A DNA stretch of 64,000 nucleotides. Origin: a virus. The notes below the pieces were generated by a model, which saw nothing but the letters and a program-made list of their open reading frames with translations, made no database searches and was not told the origin of the DNA. The translations under genes and the position numbers were made by a program. Location of the stretch: the UHGV virus genome UHGV-0038492. One strand, 5' to 3'. The first letter of the stretch is position 1; every line of letters begins with the position of its first letter. Shown here piece after piece: positions 27,860 through 55,059 of this stretch.

Positions 27860-28423
27860 GTGGCCACATCTTACGTACCTGATTTGAGTCTGACCTCAGC
27901 AGAGCTAGTGGTCGCTTTAATCAATCATGATAACGGGTTACAGCTTACACTAAACGAAATCCGTATTAGCGGAACTGTAACAAACCCATCCCCAACAACT
28001 TCGCGACGTAACACTATCACCGAAATCAGTAAAATCAGAAAACCAGATGGTGCGTCTGTTGTGGTTTACTACGACAGACTTGACGCCGATGAGGTATTAA
28101 CGTCCGAACCTATTTTGATTTCGTTAGACGGTACCGAAGCGAACATTCGTGATGTGCTTAGTGTTGTAAATGAATACTGCGGTACGAATTTACAACCTGA
28201 GGACTTACGTGCCTCAGATATTACTTCAGGTAATGATCCTATTGCTATTAACGTTGCTGACGATTCTCCTGCCTGGATGAATGCGTTTATGGTGACGTTG
28301 TTTGATAAAACCGAACGTGCGTTAGCGAACGAAGAAGATGAAATCTTCTGCATCGGTGACGATAGCGTTCTTACATTCGAGGTTACAGATGGCGACAGCA
28401 CTGAAGAAGACGAGACTCCATGA
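27860..28423 (+). CDS. fibre-associated small protein, family member 1
   Basis: GTG start after GGAGGG; homologous to ORF 38024 (PDLSLTS..., ...NLQPEDL); directly precedes a fibre gene. Confidence 0.65.
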   Translation: MATSYVPDLSLTSAELVVALINHDNGLQLTLNEIRISGTVTNPSPTTSRRNTITEISKIRKPDGASVVVYYDRLDADEVLTSEPILISLDGTEANIRDVLSVVNEYCGTNLQPEDLRASDITSGNDPIAINVADDSPAWMNAFMVTLFDKTERALANEEDEIFCIGDDSVLTFEVTDGDSTEEDETP

Positions 28424-28850
28424 GCTCGAAAGCTACGCAGGCACACCCCAAGGCGGGGTACTGCTGTATAGCAAAGACAATAAAGAATATAAAATTGATG
28501 TTGATAAGTTAGCCCCGGTTGCGACAGTCACCACGGTTAACGGTTCGAATAATGCCGCCACGTTGGATTTCAATACCAGCACTGACATTATTCTGGTGTT
28601 AAACGATCCTAACACTACAGTGACGTTCGCAGCCCTTACCAACGTTGCAGAAAATACCCGTTTCGAAGTAATGCTAACGATTAAGCAAGGAACAGGGGCG
28701 AATAAAGTAACCTGGCCTGAAAACGTTAAATGGCCTCACGGTGCACAACCGGTTTTATCCTACGCGGCAAATGCGGAAGACACTCTGTCGCTTTATACCC
28801 TTGATGGGGGTGCCACCTGGAAAGGTTCTCTTCTTGCAGCGGGTTACTAA
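28389..28850 (+). CDS. short tail-fibre-like protein with conserved N-terminal anchor motif
   Basis: Internal ATG at 28389 with GAGG RBS gives MATALKKTRLHELESYAGTPQGGVLLYSKD, homologous to the N-termini of ORFs 31938 and 38539. Confidence 0.6.
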   Translation: MATALKKTRLHELESYAGTPQGGVLLYSKDNKEYKIDVDKLAPVATVTTVNGSNNAATLDFNTSTDIILVLNDPNTTVTFAALTNVAENTRFEVMLTIKQGTGANKVTWPENVKWPHGAQPVLSYAANAEDTLSLYTLDGGATWKGSLLAAGY

Positions 28851-31937: not shown

Positions 31938-34900
31938 ATGGCAAAAGCGGTAAAGAAAATACGATTACATAATCTTAGACCATATACCGGTGATATCGGT
32001 GAAGGCGTTTTACTTTTCTCCAAGGATGAGAAAGATTATAAGTTACCAGTCCGTGAGATCATTGCGGATATTGACACCGTACGTAATGCGGTGGCTGAAG
32101 CACAGACAGCAGCAACACAATCACAAGAAGCTGCAACTCAGGCTACACAAGCAAAGAATTTAGCAGAAACAGCAAAACAACAAACTGACACCGTTGCAGC
32201 TACGGTTGCTCAACAAGCGCAAACTGTAACCGAAAAAGCAACTGAAGTCGGTACAAAACACACTGAAGTGTTAGCCGCGAAAACTGCGGTAGACGAAGTA
32301 TCAGTGTCGGTGAATGAGAAGGCTCAAGCTGTCGCCGCAAGCGAACAATCGGTGACGGCTGCTGCGGCTGATGTAACTAAGAAAGCAGAAACGGTTGCGC
32401 AACAGGCCGGACAAGTTCAACAGACGGCTACCAGCGTCGCAAATACTGCGGCATCAGTTGAGGCCAGTAAAGGTGCAGTGGAGAAAATTGCTGCGCAGGT
32501 CACGAAAGATAAAGAAACGTCGGAGGGCGCGGCTACCCGCTCAGAAGCGGCCGCACAACGTGCTGAGAAAATCGCCGCCCAAGGCTTAGTTGACGCTAGT
32601 ACGATCGGTAAAGGCATCGTTAAACTTAACGATACCCTGACTAGTGAATCCGTGACGGAGGCTGCCACGCCGTCCACGGTTAAACAGCTGAACGACGAAT
32701 TACAGTTAAAAGCCAATAAACATTCGCCGAATTTTACGGGTAAACCGACATCCCCAAAACCGCCGAAGGACTCGAATGACACGAGCATCTCCACAACGTC
32801 CTGGGTGCGTGACGCGATTGCTGAATTGGTTGGTTCCTCACCCGAGACGTTAAATACCTTAGCGGAATTAGCAGAGGCGTTAGGTAATGACCCTAACTTC
32901 GCAACAACGATCACTGAGGAGCTTGCGCAGAAGCAACCTATCAGCCCATTACTCACCGCAATCGCTGCGGTTACAAGTGCAGCAAACAAACTCCTGTATT
33001 TCACGGGCTCTAATAAAGTCGAGTTAACCGATTTTACAGAAACTGCCAGATCCTTGTTAGCGAAAGGGTCAACTGCGGATATTATTAACTTCCTGGGTTT
33101 GAAACCCACCGTTGATAAAGCAAACGGCGCACTACAGAAAAACTCTAACGGTGCTGATATCCCAAATAAAGAAACTTTTGCTCGCAACATCGGCCTATCT
33201 CCTGATACCTATCTGCGTTTCCGTGGCAAAATGCCTGTAGATGCTGATATTAACACATTTGCTCCAGATGCTAATTACACAGGAACGTGGTCTAAGTCGA
33301 CATCAACCAATGCGTCGATGGCAAAACACTTCCCAGAAGACGGTGCAGTCGGTTATCTGGAAGTGTATAAAGCGGGCAACTACAGTGGCGCGCAACGTTT
33401 TACCTGTCGTAATGGTAACGTGTACAACCGTATGTTGTCAGCCGCGTGGAACGGAACTAATGGCCCGTGGTCGCCGTGGAGAATGGTAACTACCGGTGTA
33501 CGCCCGTTATCTACATCGATTGATCTGAACTCTTTAGGCGGTGCCGAACACATGGGTAACTGGCGTAACTCGTCCAGTTCGTTAGCGGTGTTTGACAGAC
33601 ATTATCCTGAAGAGGGCGGTGGCGCTCAAGGTGTTCTGGAAGTCATGGAAGGTGGTCTTTACGGACGGTTGCAGCGATACACTACGCGTCGTGGCACAAT
33701 GTATGTCCGTGGTTTGACTGCAACATGGGATTCATCAAACCCACAATGGGAAGATTGGATTCAGGTTGGTTATCAGACTGACGGTGCTTTCTTTAAAGCC
33801 AATTTTAACGATCTCGTTAAACCGGGTCGTTTCAGTGTCACTGGTCAGGCAACTAACGGCCCACTTACCGGTTCTTCTGGCGAAACCATATTAGGCGTTT
33901 GTGAAGTTACCTTACGCTTAGACGGTACAGGGGTCGAACAGAATTATACCACATACGGCACGGGTGCAGAAACTAAAGGTCGTAAATTCCAACGTATCCG
34001 TACGGGTAACATTTGGAGCGATTGGCGTGAGGTTTTCACATCCTATTCGCTTCCGTTGGCCTTAGGTATCGGTGGGGTTGCTGCCAAGGTCGATCCGTTA
34101 GACTGGCAAACCTTCGACTTCGTTCCTGGCCAGATGATAAGCACACCGTTGAATACCATGAAAAACATTCCTGCGGGAATGGATTGGGGTGTTATTGACG
34201 GTAACTTGGTCACTATTCTTGTAGGGGCGTCGGAGGACACCGGTACTGGTCGGAGTATGTTGGTCTGGCGTGGTACAGTGTCTACTGCTAACTATCGCTT
34301 CTTTGCAGTACGTATCGCCGGTGAGAAGGGTAGCCGTACGATTACGCCACGACAGATGCCTGTGTTAAATGCAGCACACACTTGGGCCGAGAAACAAACG
34401 TTCTCTAAAGGCTTAGCGGGTGAATTGACAGGTAATGCGTCAACGGCAACGAAACTGAAAACAGCCCGTTTAATCGGTGGTGTAAGTTTCGACGGCACTA
34501 GCGACATTCCACTCCCTGGTGTTAACCAGCAAGGTAATCAAAACACCACTGGGAACGCGGGAACCGCAACCAAATTACAAACGGCTCGAAACATCAACGG
34601 TGTGAAATTCGATGGCTCTAGAGACATCAATATCAACACCTTGGTAGGACGTGGACGTGTTACTGCACTGACGGGATCAAACAAAGGTACGCCTGGTATT
34701 CAGATGTACGAAGTTTACAATAACGGTTATCCGACCGCTTATGGTAACTTATTGCATTTGGGTGGTGCTACTGCGCTAGGCGAAGGCGAGTTGTTAATCG
34801 GATGGTCGGGGACGAGTGGTGCGCACGCGCCAGTTTATATTCGTAGCCGACGTGATACGGCTGACGCGCCGTGGTCAGATTGGGCACAAGTTTATACTGC

Positions 34901-36497
34901 CCGTGACAGCATTCCTGGCGTAAATGCCACAGGTAATCAAGATACTACCGGCAATGCCGCTACCGCGACGAAACTGAAAACCGCTCGCAGAATTGGAGGC
35001 GTTACCTTTGACGGTACTGGGGATATCAATTTACCGGGGGTTAACCAAGCCGGTAACCAGAATACGTCAGGTAATGCTGCGACAGCGACTAAACTTCAGA
35101 CTGCGCGAAATATAGGCGGTGTGGCTTTTGATGGTACTAAAGACATCAGTTTACCTGGTGTAAACCAGACGGGTAATCAGTCGACTACCGGAAACGCAGC
35201 CACGGCCACAAAGTTGCAGACAGCTCGTACCATTAACGGTATCCCATTTGACGGCACTAGAAATATATCGTTAGGGCCTGCCGATATAGGTTGCCCGGCA
35301 TCACCTAGTGGTTGGTTAGAAACTGGCGCTGATGGCGCTGCAATAACTACAGCACAGCTAGTGACGTTATTGAAAAATAACGGCGCGTTTACCACAAGAT
35401 CGTGGGTTGCTCGCTGCGCATGGGCTTATGCCGCTAGTGCAAGTATACCTCATAGCGAGACGGGTTGTGGTGTTATTCCATTAGCTGGGGCTGTTATAGA
35501 AGTGATTAGTAACGGCAACAGCACAAACAACTACACGATCCGTATAACGACCGCCACAACGACGAGCGTCTCCGGCGCACTCACTAATGCGGAGTTTATC
35601 TACGTATTTAACGGCGATACTTACTCACCAGGTTGGCGTCGCGTGTACAATACGAGAAACAAGCCAACTGCTGCGGATGTTGGGGCGTTGCCATTATCTG
35701 GCGGTCAGTTGAATGGCGCGTTGGGTATTGGAACCACTAATGCTTTAGGTGGGAACTCCATAGTTTTAGGGGATAATGACACCGGCCTTAAGCAGAACGG
35801 GGATGGCGTTCTAGATGTTTACGCCAATAATGCTCATGTTTTACGCTTTACGAGTGGGGCTGTTCAAAGCAATAAACCTCTCAACGTTACCGGAGATATA
35901 AGAACCAATACTTGGGTTTATGCAAATAGATATTCTATTAACAGCAACTCAGGTTCTTGGATTAGCATGAGAGACCATAACGTTATTTTTGGTCTTAATC
36001 CGGTAGGAACTAGTTCTGCTCAGGCATTGTTAAGACAAGACCATGCTGATAGGAAATTTTTTGTTGGTGGTTTAGGTAACTATCAATTCGGCTTTTACAT
36101 GATAAACAACTCACGTACTGATAATGGCACCGATGCTAATGCTTATTTGCAAAACGACGGTACTTGGGTTTGTGGTGGGAACGGTAACTTTAACGACGTT
36201 TATATACGATCTGACGCCCGGCTGAAAAGTAATTTCTCTCCAATAACTAATGCATTGGAGAAGGTAAAGGAATTGTCAGGTTTAATATACGACAAAAAGG
36301 AGAACTTTAAATCCACTAATGTTCATCGTGAGGCTGGTGTTGTAGCGCAGACCTTACAAAAAGTGTTACCTGAAGCAGTTTCTACTTATAAAGACGCTAA
36401 TGGTGAGGACGTTTTGACGGTCTCTAACTCTGCACAAATAGCTCTACTTATTGAAGCAATAAAGGAGTTGGCGGAGATAATTGAGACCAAGTTATAA
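31938..36497 (+). CDS. long tail fibre protein with C-terminal intramolecular chaperone (peptidase S74-like) domain
   Basis: 1519 aa; conserved N-terminal anchor; Ala/Gln/Thr-rich helical stretch; four knob-like repeats ending W-x-x-W; five copies of the TGNAATATKLQTAR...FDG fibre repeat; C-terminal SDARLKSN motif of endosialidase/T5-fibre-type self-cleaving chaperones. Confidence 0.9.
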   Translation: MAKAVKKIRLHNLRPYTGDIGEGVLLFSKDEKDYKLPVREIIADIDTVRNAVAEAQTAATQSQEAATQATQAKNLAETAKQQTDTVAATVAQQAQTVTEKATEVGTKHTEVLAAKTAVDEVSVSVNEKAQAVAASEQSVTAAAADVTKKAETVAQQAGQVQQTATSVANTAASVEASKGAVEKIAAQVTKDKETSEGAATRSEAAAQRAEKIAAQGLVDASTIGKGIVKLNDTLTSESVTEAATPSTVKQLNDELQLKANKHSPNFTGKPTSPKPPKDSNDTSISTTSWVRDAIAELVGSSPETLNTLAELAEALGNDPNFATTITEELAQKQPISPLLTAIAAVTSAANKLLYFTGSNKVELTDFTETARSLLAKGSTADIINFLGLKPTVDKANGALQKNSNGADIPNKETFARNIGLSPDTYLRFRGKMPVDADINTFAPDANYTGTWSKSTSTNASMAKHFPEDGAVGYLEVYKAGNYSGAQRFTCRNGNVYNRMLSAAWNGTNGPWSPWRMVTTGVRPLSTSIDLNSLGGAEHMGNWRNSSSSLAVFDRHYPEEGGGAQGVLEVMEGGLYGRLQRYTTRRGTMYVRGLTATWDSSNPQWEDWIQVGYQTDGAFFKANFNDLVKPGRFSVTGQATNGPLTGSSGETILGVCEVTLRLDGTGVEQNYTTYGTGAETKGRKFQRIRTGNIWSDWREVFTSYSLPLALGIGGVAAKVDPLDWQTFDFVPGQMISTPLNTMKNIPAGMDWGVIDGNLVTILVGASEDTGTGRSMLVWRGTVSTANYRFFAVRIAGEKGSRTITPRQMPVLNAAHTWAEKQTFSKGLAGELTGNASTATKLKTARLIGGVSFDGTSDIPLPGVNQQGNQNTTGNAGTATKLQTARNINGVKFDGSRDININTLVGRGRVTALTGSNKGTPGIQMYEVYNNGYPTAYGNLLHLGGATALGEGELLIGWSGTSGAHAPVYIRSRRDTADAPWSDWAQVYTARDSIPGVNATGNQDTTGNAATATKLKTARRIGGVTFDGTGDINLPGVNQAGNQNTSGNAATATKLQTARNIGGVAFDGTKDISLPGVNQTGNQSTTGNAATATKLQTARTINGIPFDGTRNISLGPADIGCPASPSGWLETGADGAAITTAQLVTLLKNNGAFTTRSWVARCAWAYAASASIPHSETGCGVIPLAGAVIEVISNGNSTNNYTIRITTATTTSVSGALTNAEFIYVFNGDTYSPGWRRVYNTRNKPTAADVGALPLSGGQLNGALGIGTTNALGGNSIVLGDNDTGLKQNGDGVLDVYANNAHVLRFTSGAVQSNKPLNVTGDIRTNTWVYANRYSINSNSGSWISMRDHNVIFGLNPVGTSSAQALLRQDHADRKFFVGGLGNYQFGFYMINNSRTDNGTDANAYLQNDGTWVCGGNGNFNDVYIRSDARLKSNFSPITNALEKVKELSGLIYDKKENFKSTNVHREAGVVAQTLQKVLPEAVSTYKDANGEDVLTVSNSAQIALLIEAIKELAEIIETKL
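34428..35272 (+). repeat. in-frame tandem tail-fibre repeats (about 38 aa each), five copies interrupted by one knob-like domain
   Basis: Protein-level repeats GNQNTTGNAGTATKLQTARNINGVKFDGSRDI and variants; nucleotide copies are diverged. Confidence 0.8.
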
Positions 36498-36501
36498 TTA
36501 T

Positions 36502-36524
36502 CAGTGAGGGGTTCCCCCTCACTG
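36502..36524 (+). terminator. hairpin after the long fibre gene (no T-run)
   Basis: CAGTGAGGGG-TT-CCCCTCACTG perfect palindrome directly after the stop codon. Confidence 0.4.
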
Positions 36525-36544
36525 ACTCACAAGTACGTTATAAG

Positions 36545-37336
36545 GTGGTTATTTTGTCTGTATCAGCGACTCCCGGATGGATTGGTTCTTCAGCAAAAGC
36601 TGAAGCTGGTAATGGTTGGATGTCTGGCGCGATGCACACACTCGGTGTGCCAGTTCCAGGCTGGATGTCGCAATTGGCGGGAAAATCAAAAGAGGCTCAG
36701 TATTCGATCGGGGCTAATCACAATTACAATAAAGATACGCTTATTAACTATTTACGTTCCATAGGCTCTACTGCTGTCGTTGTGACCATTACAGGGGATT
36801 TAGTGTCTTATAGTAGCGGGGTTCCTTGTTTAGAGTTCCCTAGCAATCTTCCAAATTCGTATATTACCCTCATCATCAATCCTGGGGTTACAGTATACGG
36901 CAGAGGAGGCAACGGCGGTTCTAACTCACCAGGCGGTGCAGGTGGAACCGCAATACAGAACGGAATAGGAAACAGACTGCGTATAACCAACCGTGGCGCT
37001 ATTGCCGGAGGCGGTGGCGGCGGTGGCGGCGGTAACAGGGGTAGACTAATATTTGGTGGTGGCGGTGGTCGCCCATTCGGTGCTGGTGGGTCTTCCTCTC
37101 ATATGAGTTCCGGTGCGGCTGCTGGTACTATTTCCGCTCCTGGTAGAGGATCTGTTGGTGAGGGGTCTCTTAGTGCATATACAGGCGGTTCGGGTGGTAA
37201 TGTCGGTGCTGGTGGAGGAAGATGTAATACTCATGGTAACGGTACAGAATATAACGGCGGAGCAGCTGGTGCAGCTGTTACTGGTAATGCGCCAAGATGG
37301 GACGCAGTAGGTGCAATATACGGTTCACGTGTTTAA
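36545..37336 (+). CDS. glycine-rich fibre-associated protein
   Basis: 263 aa; run of nine Gly encoded by (GGN)9 and overall Gly/Ala/Ser-rich C-terminal part; N-terminus homologous to next ORF; start may be GTG 36545 or TTG 36554. Confidence 0.65.
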   Translation: MVILSVSATPGWIGSSAKAEAGNGWMSGAMHTLGVPVPGWMSQLAGKSKEAQYSIGANHNYNKDTLINYLRSIGSTAVVVTITGDLVSYSSGVPCLEFPSNLPNSYITLIINPGVTVYGRGGNGGSNSPGGAGGTAIQNGIGNRLRITNRGAIAGGGGGGGGGNRGRLIFGGGGGRPFGAGGSSSHMSSGAAAGTISAPGRGSVGEGSLSAYTGGSGGNVGAGGGRCNTHGNGTEYNGGAAGAAVTGNAPRWDAVGAIYGSRV

Positions 37337-37352
37337 TTAAAAAGGAGGGTAG

Positions 37353-37865
37353 ATGGGGGTAGCGTCAGGATGGGTCGGATCTTCAGCTAAGAATGAAACT
37401 GGCCAACAATGGATGAGCGCTGCGGGTAGTAAATTAGGATTGGGTAGACCTTTTATGATGAGCCAAATGGTAGGCAAGTCCGTAGGTTGCAAAATAGCAA
37501 CAGCTTATTATAAAACGTCAAATACTGATAAAGTAGAGAACTGGGGTGCTGTCGGAGCCGATTGGCCGTTGGTAGATAAGAACAAAGGAACGCTTTCTGG
37601 TGCCTCGAACTGTGGCTTAGGACGTTTAGTGGGGATCGTACTTACGCAAGCTCACTACATTTCTGGTGTTCCACCCACTGCGGCTTTATACATCGCAGGA
37701 GGAAGGGCAAGTAATATTACAGTAACAGTTGGTGGTGTTTCGCAAGCATTTACTTACGATAGTGTTATTAACGGTTTTCACTATTATTGGCAAGGAACGC
37801 CTAGTTCGGCCTTTATAGCGGCAATGAAGAAGACGGGTGTTACACAAGATTTGAAAGTTAGCTAA
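37353..37865 (+). CDS. paralog of the Gly-rich protein N-terminal domain
   Basis: AAAGGAGGG RBS; MGVASGWVGSSAKNETGQQWMSAAG aligns with SVSATPGWIGSSAKAEAGNGWMSGA of the upstream ORF. Confidence 0.65.
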   Translation: MGVASGWVGSSAKNETGQQWMSAAGSKLGLGRPFMMSQMVGKSVGCKIATAYYKTSNTDKVENWGAVGADWPLVDKNKGTLSGASNCGLGRLVGIVLTQAHYISGVPPTAALYIAGGRASNITVTVGGVSQAFTYDSVINGFHYYWQGTPSSAFIAAMKKTGVTQDLKVS

Positions 37866-38023
37866 CTAATTGGGGTAAAACGATAACTAAAACTAGTAAA
37901 ATAAGAGTTCGTGAATTCGTAATTCAATAATTTTTTATAGAAAGATTGATTTATTAGAATCGGAGGGGTGCGATGTTTTTAGCCAACATTTTACGTCTCC
38001 CCAATCATAGGAGGTAACCATAC

Positions 38024-38536
38024 GTGGAACAATTCACGCCAGATTTGTCGTTAACTTCACTTAACATGGTTATTTCACTGGTTAACCATGACCTCCAGCT
38101 TGACTTGCAAGAGAACGAGGTTGAAGTCAGCGACGTAAAGACCAGTAACGAAATGGATCGTGACACCACTGCTGTTGTAAAGATAAAACGTCCCGGTAAC
38201 AGAACGTTACAAATCTATTACAACCGTTTAACCGCAGAACGTTGGTTAAACCAGCAACCTATTCTGGTGCAAGTAACTGGAGAGGGGTTTAACACACACG
38301 ATTTAATCGATGCGATTAACGCAGCCTGTGGTAGTAACCTGCAACCCGAAGATCTTCAGGACGATTCATTTACAGTAGGAAAAGACGCTGTAACGTTACA
38401 GGTATCACCTAACTCCCTAAGTTATAAAGGCCAATTCTCTGTTTTGGTTTTTGGTAACGGCGAAGAGGCCGCAGTAACAAAAGATGACAACCTAATCGTT
38501 ACCGCAGATAATCGCGTCTTAACCTTTGGAGGTTAA
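38024..38536 (+). CDS. fibre-associated small protein, family member 2
   Basis: GTG start after AGGAGG; homologous to ORF 27860; precedes a fibre gene. Confidence 0.65.
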   Translation: MEQFTPDLSLTSLNMVISLVNHDLQLDLQENEVEVSDVKTSNEMDRDTTAVVKIKRPGNRTLQIYYNRLTAERWLNQQPILVQVTGEGFNTHDLIDAINAACGSNLQPEDLQDDSFTVGKDAVTLQVSPNSLSYKGQFSVLVFGNGEEAAVTKDDNLIVTADNRVLTFGG

Positions 38537-38538
38537 CA

Positions 38539-39159
38539 GTGGCTGAACTGGTAGGAAAGGTACGCATTCACGAGCTACCGTCACTTTCAGAAGACATTAC
38601 TGGTGTGGTGGTGTTAGCGTCTAAGGAACAAACCGAATACCAACTCCCGATTGAGAATTTAGGGGGTGGTGAGGTTACAGTGAGTCCGTCAGCGAATAAC
38701 ATCCTTAAGTCTAACAGCGATGGACTGTTTGTTGATGGCGCACATCCTATTGTACCGAAAATGGATGCAAAAACCTTATCGGGAAATATGGTGGTAGAAA
38801 AAACGCTGACAGGTGGTGCGGTAATCTGCAAAACAACGGTTGACGTTAATAATAGGCTGGGGATTTCGCAATTATCTGGGGTGTCAATTTATAGCCAGTG
38901 CCTGCTGGAAAATAAATTGGTTTACCTGGCAGAAGACGGCAGTATTATTGATGCGTACTTCTACATTAGTAATACAAAGAACACGGCCAGTACAATAACC
39001 CACACCATTCGGGTTGTCTTAGCGAAAGTACCTTCTAAAGTTGTCGATATCACCGATTTATCTGAAACTGAGGTGCAGTATCAGGATGCTAATTTGCCTG
39101 TTAAGATCGTTATTAAGCATCTTACAGGGACAACACTTTCCCAGAACGGAATGAAATAA
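38539..39159 (+). CDS. short tail-fibre-like protein with conserved N-terminal anchor motif
   Basis: GTG start after GGAGG; N-terminus MAELVGKVRIHELPSLSEDITGVVVLASKEQTEYQL homologous to ORFs 28389 and 31938; terminator downstream. Confidence 0.65.
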   Translation: MAELVGKVRIHELPSLSEDITGVVVLASKEQTEYQLPIENLGGGEVTVSPSANNILKSNSDGLFVDGAHPIVPKMDAKTLSGNMVVEKTLTGGAVICKTTVDVNNRLGISQLSGVSIYSQCLLENKLVYLAEDGSIIDAYFYISNTKNTASTITHTIRVVLAKVPSKVVDITDLSETEVQYQDANLPVKIVIKHLTGTTLSQNGMK

Positions 39160-53226: not shown

Positions 53227-53774
53227 TCATCGTCTCCTTTAATCAATCCTAATTCGATTAACAGTTCAAAATCGATATGACGGAATCTTGTATCAAAATC
53301 CGATTCCCAATCGATGCGGATACCCTGGCACTCTTCTGATGTTAGCTCGGGAAAAATTACGGTATTAAATTTCTCACGCTCATCGTAAAACCCATCAATC
53401 GGTGAGTTCGGGTTACGCGTTGCGAAAATAGTAATACCAGGGAAAGATAATGCTAACACAGTGATAGATTCTGCGCTGGGCTCACTTAAAGAGCGGCGTA
53501 GAAACGCAATTTTGTGGCGTGGGAAGTCCAATACGCGTTCTTCAAACCCTGGATTACGTTTTTCGATTTCCGCTACCGACAGGTCAGTAAGTTCGGTGCA
53601 ATACATTGGGATGATTACAGTCACGCCGTGGCGAATCAGTAAACGTTTTACGTCATCGGTAAAATCTTCGCCGTTAATCATCACGTAACAACCGAACAGC
53701 TTACTGTTTTCCAGAAACTTATCCAGAAGTCGAATTCTACGCTTCGTAATATTGTTGATCAGAATTGGTTTCAT
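53202..53774 (-). CDS. hypothetical protein co-operonic with radical-SAM enzymes
   Basis: 190-aa ORF overlapping both neighbours. Confidence 0.6.
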   Translation of the reverse strand: MKPILINNITKRRIRLLDKFLENSKLFGCYVMINGEDFTDDVKRLLIRHGVTVIIPMYCTELTDLSVAEIEKRNPGFEERVLDFPRHKIAFLRRSLSEPSAESITVLALSFPGITIFATRNPNSPIDGFYDEREKFNTVIFPELTSEECQGIRIDWESDFDTRFRHIDFELLIELGLIKGDDECLLLVKA

Positions 53775-55059
53775 CTTTGGCTTCTCTTAATAATTTTTCC
53801 TTTTGGGCGCGTTCACGAACACAGCGTGGGCAATAACACATACTCGTGTCGTGGAACGCTTTTGCTGACGTCGTACCCATCTTCTGTTTCCAGTATTCCG
53901 CCACCATCAGTTTCGCTGTCGTCCACCCGCACTGACGTCGCTCAGCGTGATACGCTTTACGGTCTTCCAGTGTCCCTTCACCGTTTTCGTAAGAAGCCGC
54001 AGCGCAGCTACCACAAGCGTGTTTCATCGGACAACCTAAGCACGTCTCTGGATAGTTGGTATATTGTGTTTGAATCTCTTCTAACAATTTACCGTTGTCC
54101 AGGCTGACGAATTCCCGACCTACCAACTCAAATACCGCAGAACGTGATGTTACGGTTGACATAAAGCGATTGCAACCGAAGATCTTACGGTCAAAACCTA
54201 AACACGTCATGTGTGTTAATGTCCCACAGAACGGACGTAAACGTTCTGGGTTCAACCGCACCGTGTCATTATAAAGTAATTGATCACGCCAGTTCGGTTC
54301 CCAAATCGTATCGAAATCCAACCCTTCTGGGATGATGTGCGATAAGATATTACGTGGGTTGGTGTGTAATCCTTTCTCGACCCAATAATCAATCACATCC
54401 ATCATCTGCAATGCAATTGAAGTAGCCATCCCACGTGGCATAATGTCTTCGAAGGTTACGTTGCCGGAGATAGTTCCGCCACCAGTAATATCAATTAATG
54501 ACTTCATTCCGGCAGCATAGTACGGTAACGTTTCTAACGTAAAGGTCGCCTTTACGCCAAGCTCTGCAATGCCAACCTCTTTTAAGTAGTTATAGCCTCG
54601 TACTGCGGCTTCGTAAGAACCCTGGCGCGTCGTTGTAAAGATACGATAACGGTCATGGGACTCAGGTAAGCCGTCAATTGAAACCCCAACCGAAAGTTTG
54701 TCTTTCCAACGCTCTACGATCTCACGGTTCAACGGGCGATCTAACAACGTCCCGTTTGTGGAAATACTAAACATAAACGGCCGATTATGTTCTTTACACA
54801 ACTGCTCGGCGGTTTCAAATGCAGCCAGCAGCAACTTAGGCTGCATGAACGGTTCACCACCGATAATGTCAATAATAACTTCAACATTCGGTTCGTTTTT
54901 ATCGCGTTCAAAACAGGCGTGCAAGAAATCAACAATATCTGCCGCTTTGTTGTTACGCGGGTACTTACGTTCGTAACAATATTCGCAGTCCAGGTTACAC
55001 GAAAGGTTCGTTACAATCTGATACGTTAGCTGCTTAGGGAATTCATTTACCTGACTCAT
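53737..55059 (-). CDS. radical SAM enzyme with C-terminal SPASM-like Cys cluster (anSME/peptide-maturase-like)
   Basis: N-terminal CNLDCEYC (CxxxCxxC), GGEPFM SAM-binding motif, and C-terminal cysteines (CLGCPMKHACGSC...CYCPRC) typical of auxiliary Fe-S clusters. Confidence 0.75.
   Translation of the reverse strand: MSQVNEFPKQLTYQIVTNLSCNLDCEYCYERKYPRNNKAADIVDFLHACFERDKNEPNVEVIIDIIGGEPFMQPKLLLAAFETAEQLCKEHNRPFMFSISTNGTLLDRPLNREIVERWKDKLSVGVSIDGLPESHDRYRIFTTTRQGSYEAAVRGYNYLKEVGIAELGVKATFTLETLPYYAAGMKSLIDITGGGTISGNVTFEDIMPRGMATSIALQMMDVIDYWVEKGLHTNPRNILSHIIPEGLDFDTIWEPNWRDQLLYNDTVRLNPERLRPFCGTLTHMTCLGFDRKIFGCNRFMSTVTSRSAVFELVGREFVSLDNGKLLEEIQTQYTNYPETCLGCPMKHACGSCAAASYENGEGTLEDRKAYHAERRQCGWTTAKLMVAEYWKQKMGTTSAKAFHDTSMCYCPRCVRERAQKEKLLREAKDETNSDQQYYEA

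Follow-up and report, generated by a model that had tools for sequence, protein, structure and literature searches.

A Gp38-type adhesin gene and a second plug-bearing adhesin-class gene behind one long tail fibre gene in a Salmonella-associated jumbo phage

Two adhesin-type genes behind a long tail fibre

The region at positions 36545-37865 of the virus genome UHGV-0038492 lies in a stretch of 64,000 nucleotides (nt), the whole of which we call the window, and contains two open reading frames (ORFs), here ORF1 and ORF2, that follow the gene of a long tail fibre. We consider it rather probable that this region is a fibre-tip system in the style of phages T2 and S16, with two alternative adhesins. 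From its profile and structure matches ORF1 is an ordinary Gp38 adhesin of the T2/S16 type, a well-described family, and ORF2 is assigned by the same kind of search to a second adhesin class that has the same N-terminal attachment domain, or plug. The window belongs to a Salmonella-associated jumbo phage of ~225 kilobases (kb), related to Seoulvirus/phiEaH2 and not to Straboviridae, and what we describe is thus a known adhesin family in a new genomic background. A preliminary description of this DNA had placed both genes after a chaperone-containing fibre, and a Peptidase_S74 domain is indeed found at the C-terminus of the 1519-residue fibre. The main features, with lengths in amino acids (aa), are as follows.

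31938-36497, + strand: long tail fibre, mosaic, with a gp37-like distal end; 1519 aa; Pfam Phage_fiber_2 and Peptidase_S74
36554-37336, + strand: ORF1, Gp38 adhesin of the T2/S16 type by sequence match; 260 aa from a TTG start
36575-36679, + strand: Gp38_N attachment domain of ORF1 (PF21721, 2e-11, 44.1 bits, cut-off 25)
36896-37333, + strand: glycine-rich-motif/hypervariable-loop receptor-binding domain of ORF1, aa 115-260
37353-37865, + strand: ORF2, 170 aa, ATG start, with a strong Shine-Dalgarno sequence, AAGGAGG, at 37342-37348
37353-37472, + strand: Gp38_N attachment domain of ORF2 (PF21721, 1.8e-20, 73.1 bits, profile positions 1-40 of 40)
37482-37862, + strand: C-terminal domain of ORF2 (aa 44-170), a predicted beta-sandwich and putative receptor-binding part, unrelated to ORF1

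ORF1 matches the Pfam family GP38 (PF05268) over the complete profile, positions 1-218 of 218 (6e-69, 232.6 bits, cut-off 25), and PHROG 2056, 'tail fiber protein; host specificity' (4.5e-90). Its residues 11-261 align to residues 6-247 of the S16 gp38 structure (PDB 6F45_D, E=7.5e-50), with all three domains covered. The gene lies in an open frame at 36545-37336 of the + strand, in which the start is likely to be the TTG at 36554 and not 36545; a Shine-Dalgarno sequence, AAGGTGG, is present at 36542-36548 ahead of this codon, the product has 260 aa, and gene callers and the NCBI use the same start for identical or near-identical proteins. The identical 260-aa protein is already present in public collections, and the NCBI has named an allele that is one residue different (P0021, H28R), from the same 238-member cluster (90% identity), 'receptor-recognizing protein'. 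The whole ORF1 protein, including the position of its glycine run, is kept over hundreds of homologues, and this conservation indicates that the pattern is not due to chance. The glycine content is 25% over the whole protein and reaches 36% in the C-terminal 146 residues, and there are 22 GG dipeptides.

In S16 gp38 three Trp residues of the N-terminal domain plug three equivalent pockets on the base of trimeric gp37, the plug is followed by a beta-helix and then by a three-layered polyglycine-II sandwich of glycine-rich motifs, and the hypervariable loops are the proposed receptor-binding site (PMC6851490). The plug of ORF1 has Trp residues at W9, W22 and W37 (260-aa numbering), which by our count align with W7, W20 and W36 of S16 gp38. 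ORF1 also resembles the Gp38 adhesins of T2, T6 and S16 (PF05268 and PF21721; 6F45_D) in its length, its domain order, the alternation of glycine-rich and hypervariable segments and the long central glycine run, as well as in the position of its gene, immediately behind that of a fibre with a predicted self-cleaving chaperone at its end. Unlike the T2/T6/S16 systems, that of the window is in a ~225 kb jumbo phage, has a clade-specific plug and is followed by a second adhesin gene. In an alignment of 11 adhesins the motifs GRGGNGG, GAGG, G9, G5RPFG, GGNVGA and GGAAG show no variation, and the intervening segments vary.

The two halves of ORF1 differ in their similarity to other gp38 proteins. 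The receptor-binding half is 82-88% identical at the protein level to gp38 of T-even phages (FL18, FL20, PaulHMueller, JSE), and 78-90% identical at the DNA level to gp38 of Krischvirus, Mosigvirus and Tequatrovirus coliphages. For the plug, whose sequence is specific to the clade, the identity to that of T-even phages is no more than 42-57%. Exchange at the conserved glycine-rich motifs is a known pattern for gp38 (PMC3157838), and the combination of a divergent plug with coliphage-like loops in ORF1 fits it. The coliphages FL18 and FL20 depend on OmpA (PMC12032242), and because the hypervariable loops of ORF1 are nearly identical to theirs, our best guess for its receptor would be OmpA.

ORF2 matches PHROG 1121, 'tail fiber adhesin' (4.3e-54), from end to end, residues 1-169 against profile positions 1-179 of 181. 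Since the profile of its own family is covered in this way, ORF2 is taken to be complete and to belong to a second adhesin class, and not to be a truncated gp38. The preliminary description was correct that the two proteins share an N-terminus (BLASTP, 42% identity over 59 aa, E=9e-11, both matching Gp38_N), which is the fibre-docking domain, and that the glycine-rich part of ORF1 is absent from ORF2; its view of ORF2 as a truncated paralog does not hold, given the end-to-end match and the homologues that are the sole adhesin elsewhere. The only PDB match of ORF2 is to the S16 gp38 plug (6F45_D residues 1-44), and we found no solved structural analogue of its predicted beta-sandwich.

Proteins covering at least 80% of ORF2 occur in 141 phage records, mostly Straboviridae of Klebsiella, Enterobacter, Cronobacter and Citrobacter. 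These short Gp38_N proteins (homologues of 167-171 aa) are a widespread class, whose putative adhesin role comes from annotation. In Stx prophages, in many Straboviridae and in one variant of the Escherichia phage CMS-2020a the short class is the sole adhesin following the fibre. ORF2 is 66% identical to ORF66 of the Stx phage P8983, annotated 'tail fibre adesine' and likewise encoded right after the tail fibre, and 85% identical to the short adhesin of the CMS-2020a variant. In P8983 and in the Klebsiella, Enterobacter and Cronobacter Straboviridae the short protein is the only adhesin, whereas here it is the second of a pair.

Many ORF2 homologues bear the legacy name 'distal long tail fiber assembly catalyst'. 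With some of these homologues T4 gp38 shares only that name and the gene number; the T4 gp38 assembly chaperone is unrelated to adhesin gp38 and is not retained on the fibre (PMC6851490, PMC12032242). A T4 gp38-type assembly chaperone was considered for either ORF and rejected, as sequence searches of Pfam, PHROG and PDB matched only adhesin-type gp38 (S16, PP01), the T4 gp38 sequence itself not having been directly compared.

Genomic setting and conservation of the pair

The virion genes of the window have ~73% DNA identity to those of the Erwinia phages phiEaH2, Stratton and Asesino and of SPN3US-like phages of Salmonella, and the phage collection that we searched contained no close relative of the window genome. 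Members of the ORF1 cluster are on contigs of 220-226 kb in Salmonella enterica Enteritidis and Wangata assemblies, and on a shorter Infantis contig. The jumbo phage itself occurs near-complete, as contigs of 220-226 kb, in many Salmonella enterica isolate assemblies (Enteritidis, Wangata, Typhimurium), which suggests carriage (a carrier state or pseudolysogeny) or contamination. The Seoulvirus Erwinia phage pEa_SNUABM_29 (L070) has a homologue of the upstream 1001-aa tail protein of the window, without fibre or adhesin genes after it. We therefore regard the ~6 kb block of fibre, adhesin and adhesin as an addition in the jumbo clade.

Four IMG/VR jumbo contigs (151-225 kb) have the same gene order of fibre, gp38 and short adhesin, and so do several other public contigs. 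ORF2 begins 16 nt downstream of ORF1, its counterpart is directly after gp38 in every relative, and both genes are within one late gene block and have good ribosome-binding sites. The exact ORF2 protein is on nine public contigs and always lies beside gp38 where flanking sequence exists. Among the ORF2 homologues of the jumbo clade the plug is 95-100% conserved and the C-terminal domain falls to 48-54% identity, and in one relative (L065) the gp38 loops are entirely different from those of the window. As read from these alignments, within the clade the plugs are conserved and each receptor domain diversifies independently.

The same slot behind the fibre is exchangeable in other phages. Two circular ~108 kb genomes of Escherichia phage CMS-2020a (L002, CP054387 and L003, CP053388) have different fibres and carry either a short adhesin or a polyglycine gp38 in this position, a natural cassette swap. 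Tandem pairs of Gp38_N proteins also occur outside this phage. A tblastn search with ORF1 found 813 places in 791 records, of which at most 22 had more than one match; two multi-match records were listed, and the one inspected, the Winklervirus Kosakonia phage Kc304 (L071, 4001-5203), holds a pair. In Kc304, a member of the Straboviridae, a gp37 with S74 is followed by two Gp38_N genes, 28% identical and with different C-terminal domains, annotated only as 'tail fiber protein'. A tandem pair, gp252/gp253, is annotated and not analysed in the Winklervirus Serratia phage LC53 (PMC10132071). Both members of the Winklervirus pair are of the short type, whereas the pair of the window has one polyglycine and one short member. 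In the literature we found neither gp38-type adhesins in jumbo phages nor an explanation of adhesin pairs; a paper on the 'gp38' of vB_EcoM_SD286 concerns an unrelated protein of a Rosemountvirus.

Of the switchable determinants of host range in T-even phages, Gp38 adhesins are the best understood, and they serve in engineering and in receptor prediction. In the locus described here this system of fibre end and plug has moved into a jumbo phage found in assemblies of Salmonella isolates, two adhesins of unrelated structure that share a plug are retained next to each other, and the plug and the glycine-rich motifs serve as joints for recombination.

The fibre end and its proposed caps

The distal end of the fibre gene and the gap that follows it contain the following features.

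36174-36209, + strand: last 12 residues of the mature fibre (GGNGNFNDVYIR), proposed adhesin docking base
36210-36494, + strand: intramolecular chaperone, aa 1425-1519, beginning SDARLK, with Ser1425 at nt 36210
36502-36524, + strand: GC-rich hairpin CAGTGAGGGG-TTC-CCCCTCACTG, with 10-base-pair arms and a 3-nt loop and without a U-tail

The fibre matches many PHROG tail-fibre families, that of the long tail fibre distal subunit included. Its residues ~1302-1415 are similar to tail fibre protein S (PDB 5YVQ), one stretch ahead of these residues is similar to 8JU3, and a short segment matches S16 gp37 (PDB 6F45_A). Unlike the fibres of T2, T6 and S16, that of the window is a mosaic with Mu/P1 S-fibre-like parts. 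The Peptidase_S74 match spans aa 1425-1481 (Pfam, 6.8e-15), and by analogy with the family the chaperone would be expected to cleave itself off before Ser1425. In T2, T6 and S16 gp37 loses its chaperone, and the end so formed is capped by gp38 (PMC3157838; bioRxiv 10.64898/2026.05.12.724579). The junction of the window fibre, ...GGNGNFNDVYIR/SDARLK (...GNGNFNDVYIR), fits this pattern, and we infer that GGNGNFNDVYIR may be the docking base for an adhesin plug. Fibre C-termini extracted from 57 related loci gave 30 distinct tip sequences, in 29 of which ...GNG(S/N)FNDV(Y/Q)IR stands directly before SDxRxK, with either adhesin class; the exception is a T-even-type contig (L058).

The tips fall into two types. 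Type A is Mu-S-like, ends in ...VYIR and has a gap of 59 nt with the hairpin, and the gp38 paired with it begins MSVSATPGW. In type B, which ends in ...VQIR, the fibre stop codon overlaps the start of gp38, and the paired gp38 begins MAVVGVGGW. The hairpin, at 36502-36524 between the fibre stop and ORF1, is found only in relatives with type A (RNA fold -27.2 kcal/mol, 11 pairs, z=-3.5), and in the window ORF1 starts 57 nt past the fibre stop codon. A scan for promoters and terminators over 36300-38700 gave nothing that exceeded shuffled expectation. An identical ORF2 occurs with either type of tip, with type A in the window and with type B in L061.

From these data we propose the following sequence of events. 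The 1519-aa fibre would trimerise with the aid of its own C-terminal chaperone, which would then cut itself off before Ser1425 and expose a blunt trimeric end, ...GNGNFNDVYIR. A single adhesin molecule would cap this end by means of its ~40-residue Gp38_N plug. ORF1 would fold as plug, beta-helix and polyglycine-II sandwich, with the glycine runs as helices and the segments between them as receptor-binding loops, and ORF2 would present the same plug with an unrelated small beta domain, probably for a different receptor. Because each protein carries a complete plug and the pair is kept together, it is plausible from the sequences that both can cap the same fibre. ORF1 and ORF2 might then compete for the same fibre ends, which would yield virions with two receptor specificities.

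More tentatively, and we regard this as possible although doubtful, the virions could be mosaic, each fibre end being capped at random by either adhesin through a universal ...FNDVxIR plug interface, in a form of bet-hedging with dual receptor use. If this were true, the series of gp38 deletions with an intact second adhesin described below would be a record of interchangeable caps, and plug and fibre end would be a portable 'socket' across Straboviridae, Stx prophages, ~108 kb circular phages and jumbo phages. Should both caps be in use, the locus would be an uncomplicated way to two receptor specificities and would provide a socket already suited to the swapping of adhesins in jumbo phages; if they are not, it is just one more gp38 homologue.

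Several observations weigh against the shared use of this fibre end. The plug of ORF2 has Trp7 and Trp20, with Met35 at the position of the third Trp of S16 and ORF1; among ORF2 homologues this third position is M, N, Y or W. Only one of five AlphaFold models of ORF2 was confident, and our search of the literature found no experiment showing receptor binding by any short-class Gp38_N protein. Where a locus has a single adhesin, ...VYIR tips accompany the glycine-rich-motif/polyglycine class and ...VQIR tips the short class. A lock-and-key rule of fibre tip and adhesin was reportedly set out by Trojet in 2011, and from this rule together with the correlation of tip types ORF2 may fit the ...VYIR tip of the window poorly. 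A second fibre could also lie in the rest of the ~225 kb genome, ~160 kb of which is outside the window.

The last two points would agree with one dedicated adhesin for each fibre, ORF2 capping another fibre encoded elsewhere in the genome, of which the window is 64 kb of ~225 kb. We consider this unlikely. ORF2 follows ORF1 by 16 nt and is so placed in every relative, a tblastn search of the 64-kb window detected no second fibre tip or chaperone, the identical ORF2 stands beside either tip type (L061 and the window), and Kc304 also has two such adhesins after one gp37. The legacy name on many homologues and the lack of receptor-binding data for the short class in the literature would also agree with ORF2 being an assembly factor or capping competitor that visits the fibre end transiently and is not a receptor-binding virion protein. 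This too we think unlikely, as the fibre already has its own chaperone, Stx prophages and many Straboviridae have no adhesin candidate other than the short class behind such fibres, the C-terminal domain of ORF2 diversifies in the manner of a receptor-binding domain (48-54% identity, as against 95% for the plug) and ORF2 is intact where gp38 is deleted.

The fibre gene is itself variable. Compared with an otherwise ~98% identical relative (L038, 148-4770), a central block of ~150 residues has been replaced by unrelated sequence, following repeated GNxxTxGNAATATKLQTAR units, and the distal ~170 residues of the fibre have two unrelated forms within the clade.

The nine-glycine run and in-frame deletions

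The glycine-rich half of ORF1 contains the following sequence elements.

37007-37033, + strand: nine-glycine run of ORF1, GGA GGC GGT GGC GGC GGT GGC GGC GGT
36934-36945, + strand: direct repeat CGGTGCnGGTGG (encodes GAGG), left copy
37078-37089, + strand: direct repeat CGGTGCnGGTGG, right copy, 144 nt from the left copy

The nine consecutive glycines reported in the preliminary description are present, encoded at 37007-37033. The run aligns exactly with the run 151-GGGGGGGG-158 of S16 gp38, which the S16 authors label as helix 3 of the polyglycine-II sandwich (PMC6851490). The nine-glycine and five-glycine runs are at the same positions in all 15 alleles read from the 238-member cluster, and likewise in relatives from other phage types down to about 80% identity; no polymorphism in repeat number was seen among the close alleles or among loci at 80-99% identity. 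From the alignment to S16 helix 3 and the invariant length in close alleles, we conclude that the run is a conserved structural element and not a slippery tract. Among 121 representatives of the wider family the long run has nine glycines in 65, eight in 29, seven in 16 and six in three, and is absent from eight.

These results bear on the proposal, made in the preliminary description, that the tract expands and contracts in frame and gives a fibre-tip or decoration protein of variable length, with ORF2 as a truncated duplicate. The location at the tip agrees with what is known of the Gp38 family (PMC3157838, PMC6851490); the variable length of the tract does not stand, as nine glycines were read in 15 of 15 alleles. 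The tract does contain a perfect 9-nt unit repeated 2.7 times (Tandem Repeats Finder, 37010-37033), and relatives have in-frame contractions, and in one case a frameshift, at glycine runs (P0078, P0085, P0096, P0120). Slippage is nevertheless very improbable and already largely refuted: the run has the same nine glycines in the close alleles and in the relatives at 80-99% identity, it corresponds in place and length to a structural helix of S16 gp38 (PMC6851490), ORF2 is full-length for its own family, and the contractions are large deletions between different repeats that take out whole structural elements.

In relatives of the ORF1 gene we identified large in-frame deletions with junctions within the glycine-rich motifs, and in this sense the predicted contraction of the protein does occur, by recombination. 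Three relatives (L045, P0052, P0055) have lost 48 residues between the two CGGTGCnGGTGG repeats. Since these three differ at other residues, the deleted allele has persisted and diverged. P0073 has an in-frame deletion of 84 residues, in P0078 the glycine run is joined to the downstream ASGG, and in P0085 and the T-even-type allele P0120 the nine-glycine and five-glycine runs are fused with loss of the first hypervariable loop. In P0096 there is a frameshift after the glycine run. Because such deletions are large and remove whole structural elements, the contractions of gp38 are the product of recombination between different glycine-rich repeats and not of unit slippage inside the run.

This deletion series raises a further possibility, that only one adhesin is functional in each lineage and the other is a passenger or a recombination reservoir, so that there is redundancy and no dual specificity. 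A deletion or frameshift is seen in six of ten representatives of the gp38 clusters of the clade, all five rearranged alleles with a known N-terminus carry the type-B haplotype linked to the ...VQIR tip, and the short adhesin is intact downstream of the rearranged gp38 in each of four contexts inspected (L045, P0052, P0073, P0078). We judge this improbable nonetheless. When member sequences are counted, gp38 is intact in 485 and rearranged in 17 (~97% intact), the exchange of gp38 loops within the clade (L065 and the window) suggests ongoing selection, and the ribosome-binding sites of both genes are good. Two alternative adhesins on a T2/S16-style fibre tip remain our preferred reading of the locus.

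Neighbouring genes

After the two adhesin genes there is an ORF of 170 aa at 38024-38536 (+ strand), which matches DUF7941 and a PHROG 'virion structural protein'. In a close relative (L038, 6217-8151) the same position is occupied by a protein of 644 aa, of which only the last ~170 residues correspond to this ORF. Most relatives have the short form, and the N-terminal ~470 residues of the long form have no Pfam match. An N-terminal motif of ~40-50 residues (MA..V.K.R.H.L...) is common to 28338-28850, 31938-32100 and 38539-38661 (+ strand), that is, to a 170-aa ORF located before the 1001-aa tail protein, to the long fibre and to a 206-aa ORF (tblastn, 47% and 37% identity); it is probably an anchor to the baseplate or to an adaptor. 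An antisense ORF of 257 aa at 32417-33190 (- strand) falls within the Ala/Thr/Gln-rich coiled coil of the fibre gene and is probably an effect of the biased composition and not a gene. Further downstream, at 53737-55059 (- strand), the window encodes a radical SAM domain protein (PHROG 1802, 7.8e-116) that is unrelated to the adhesin locus.

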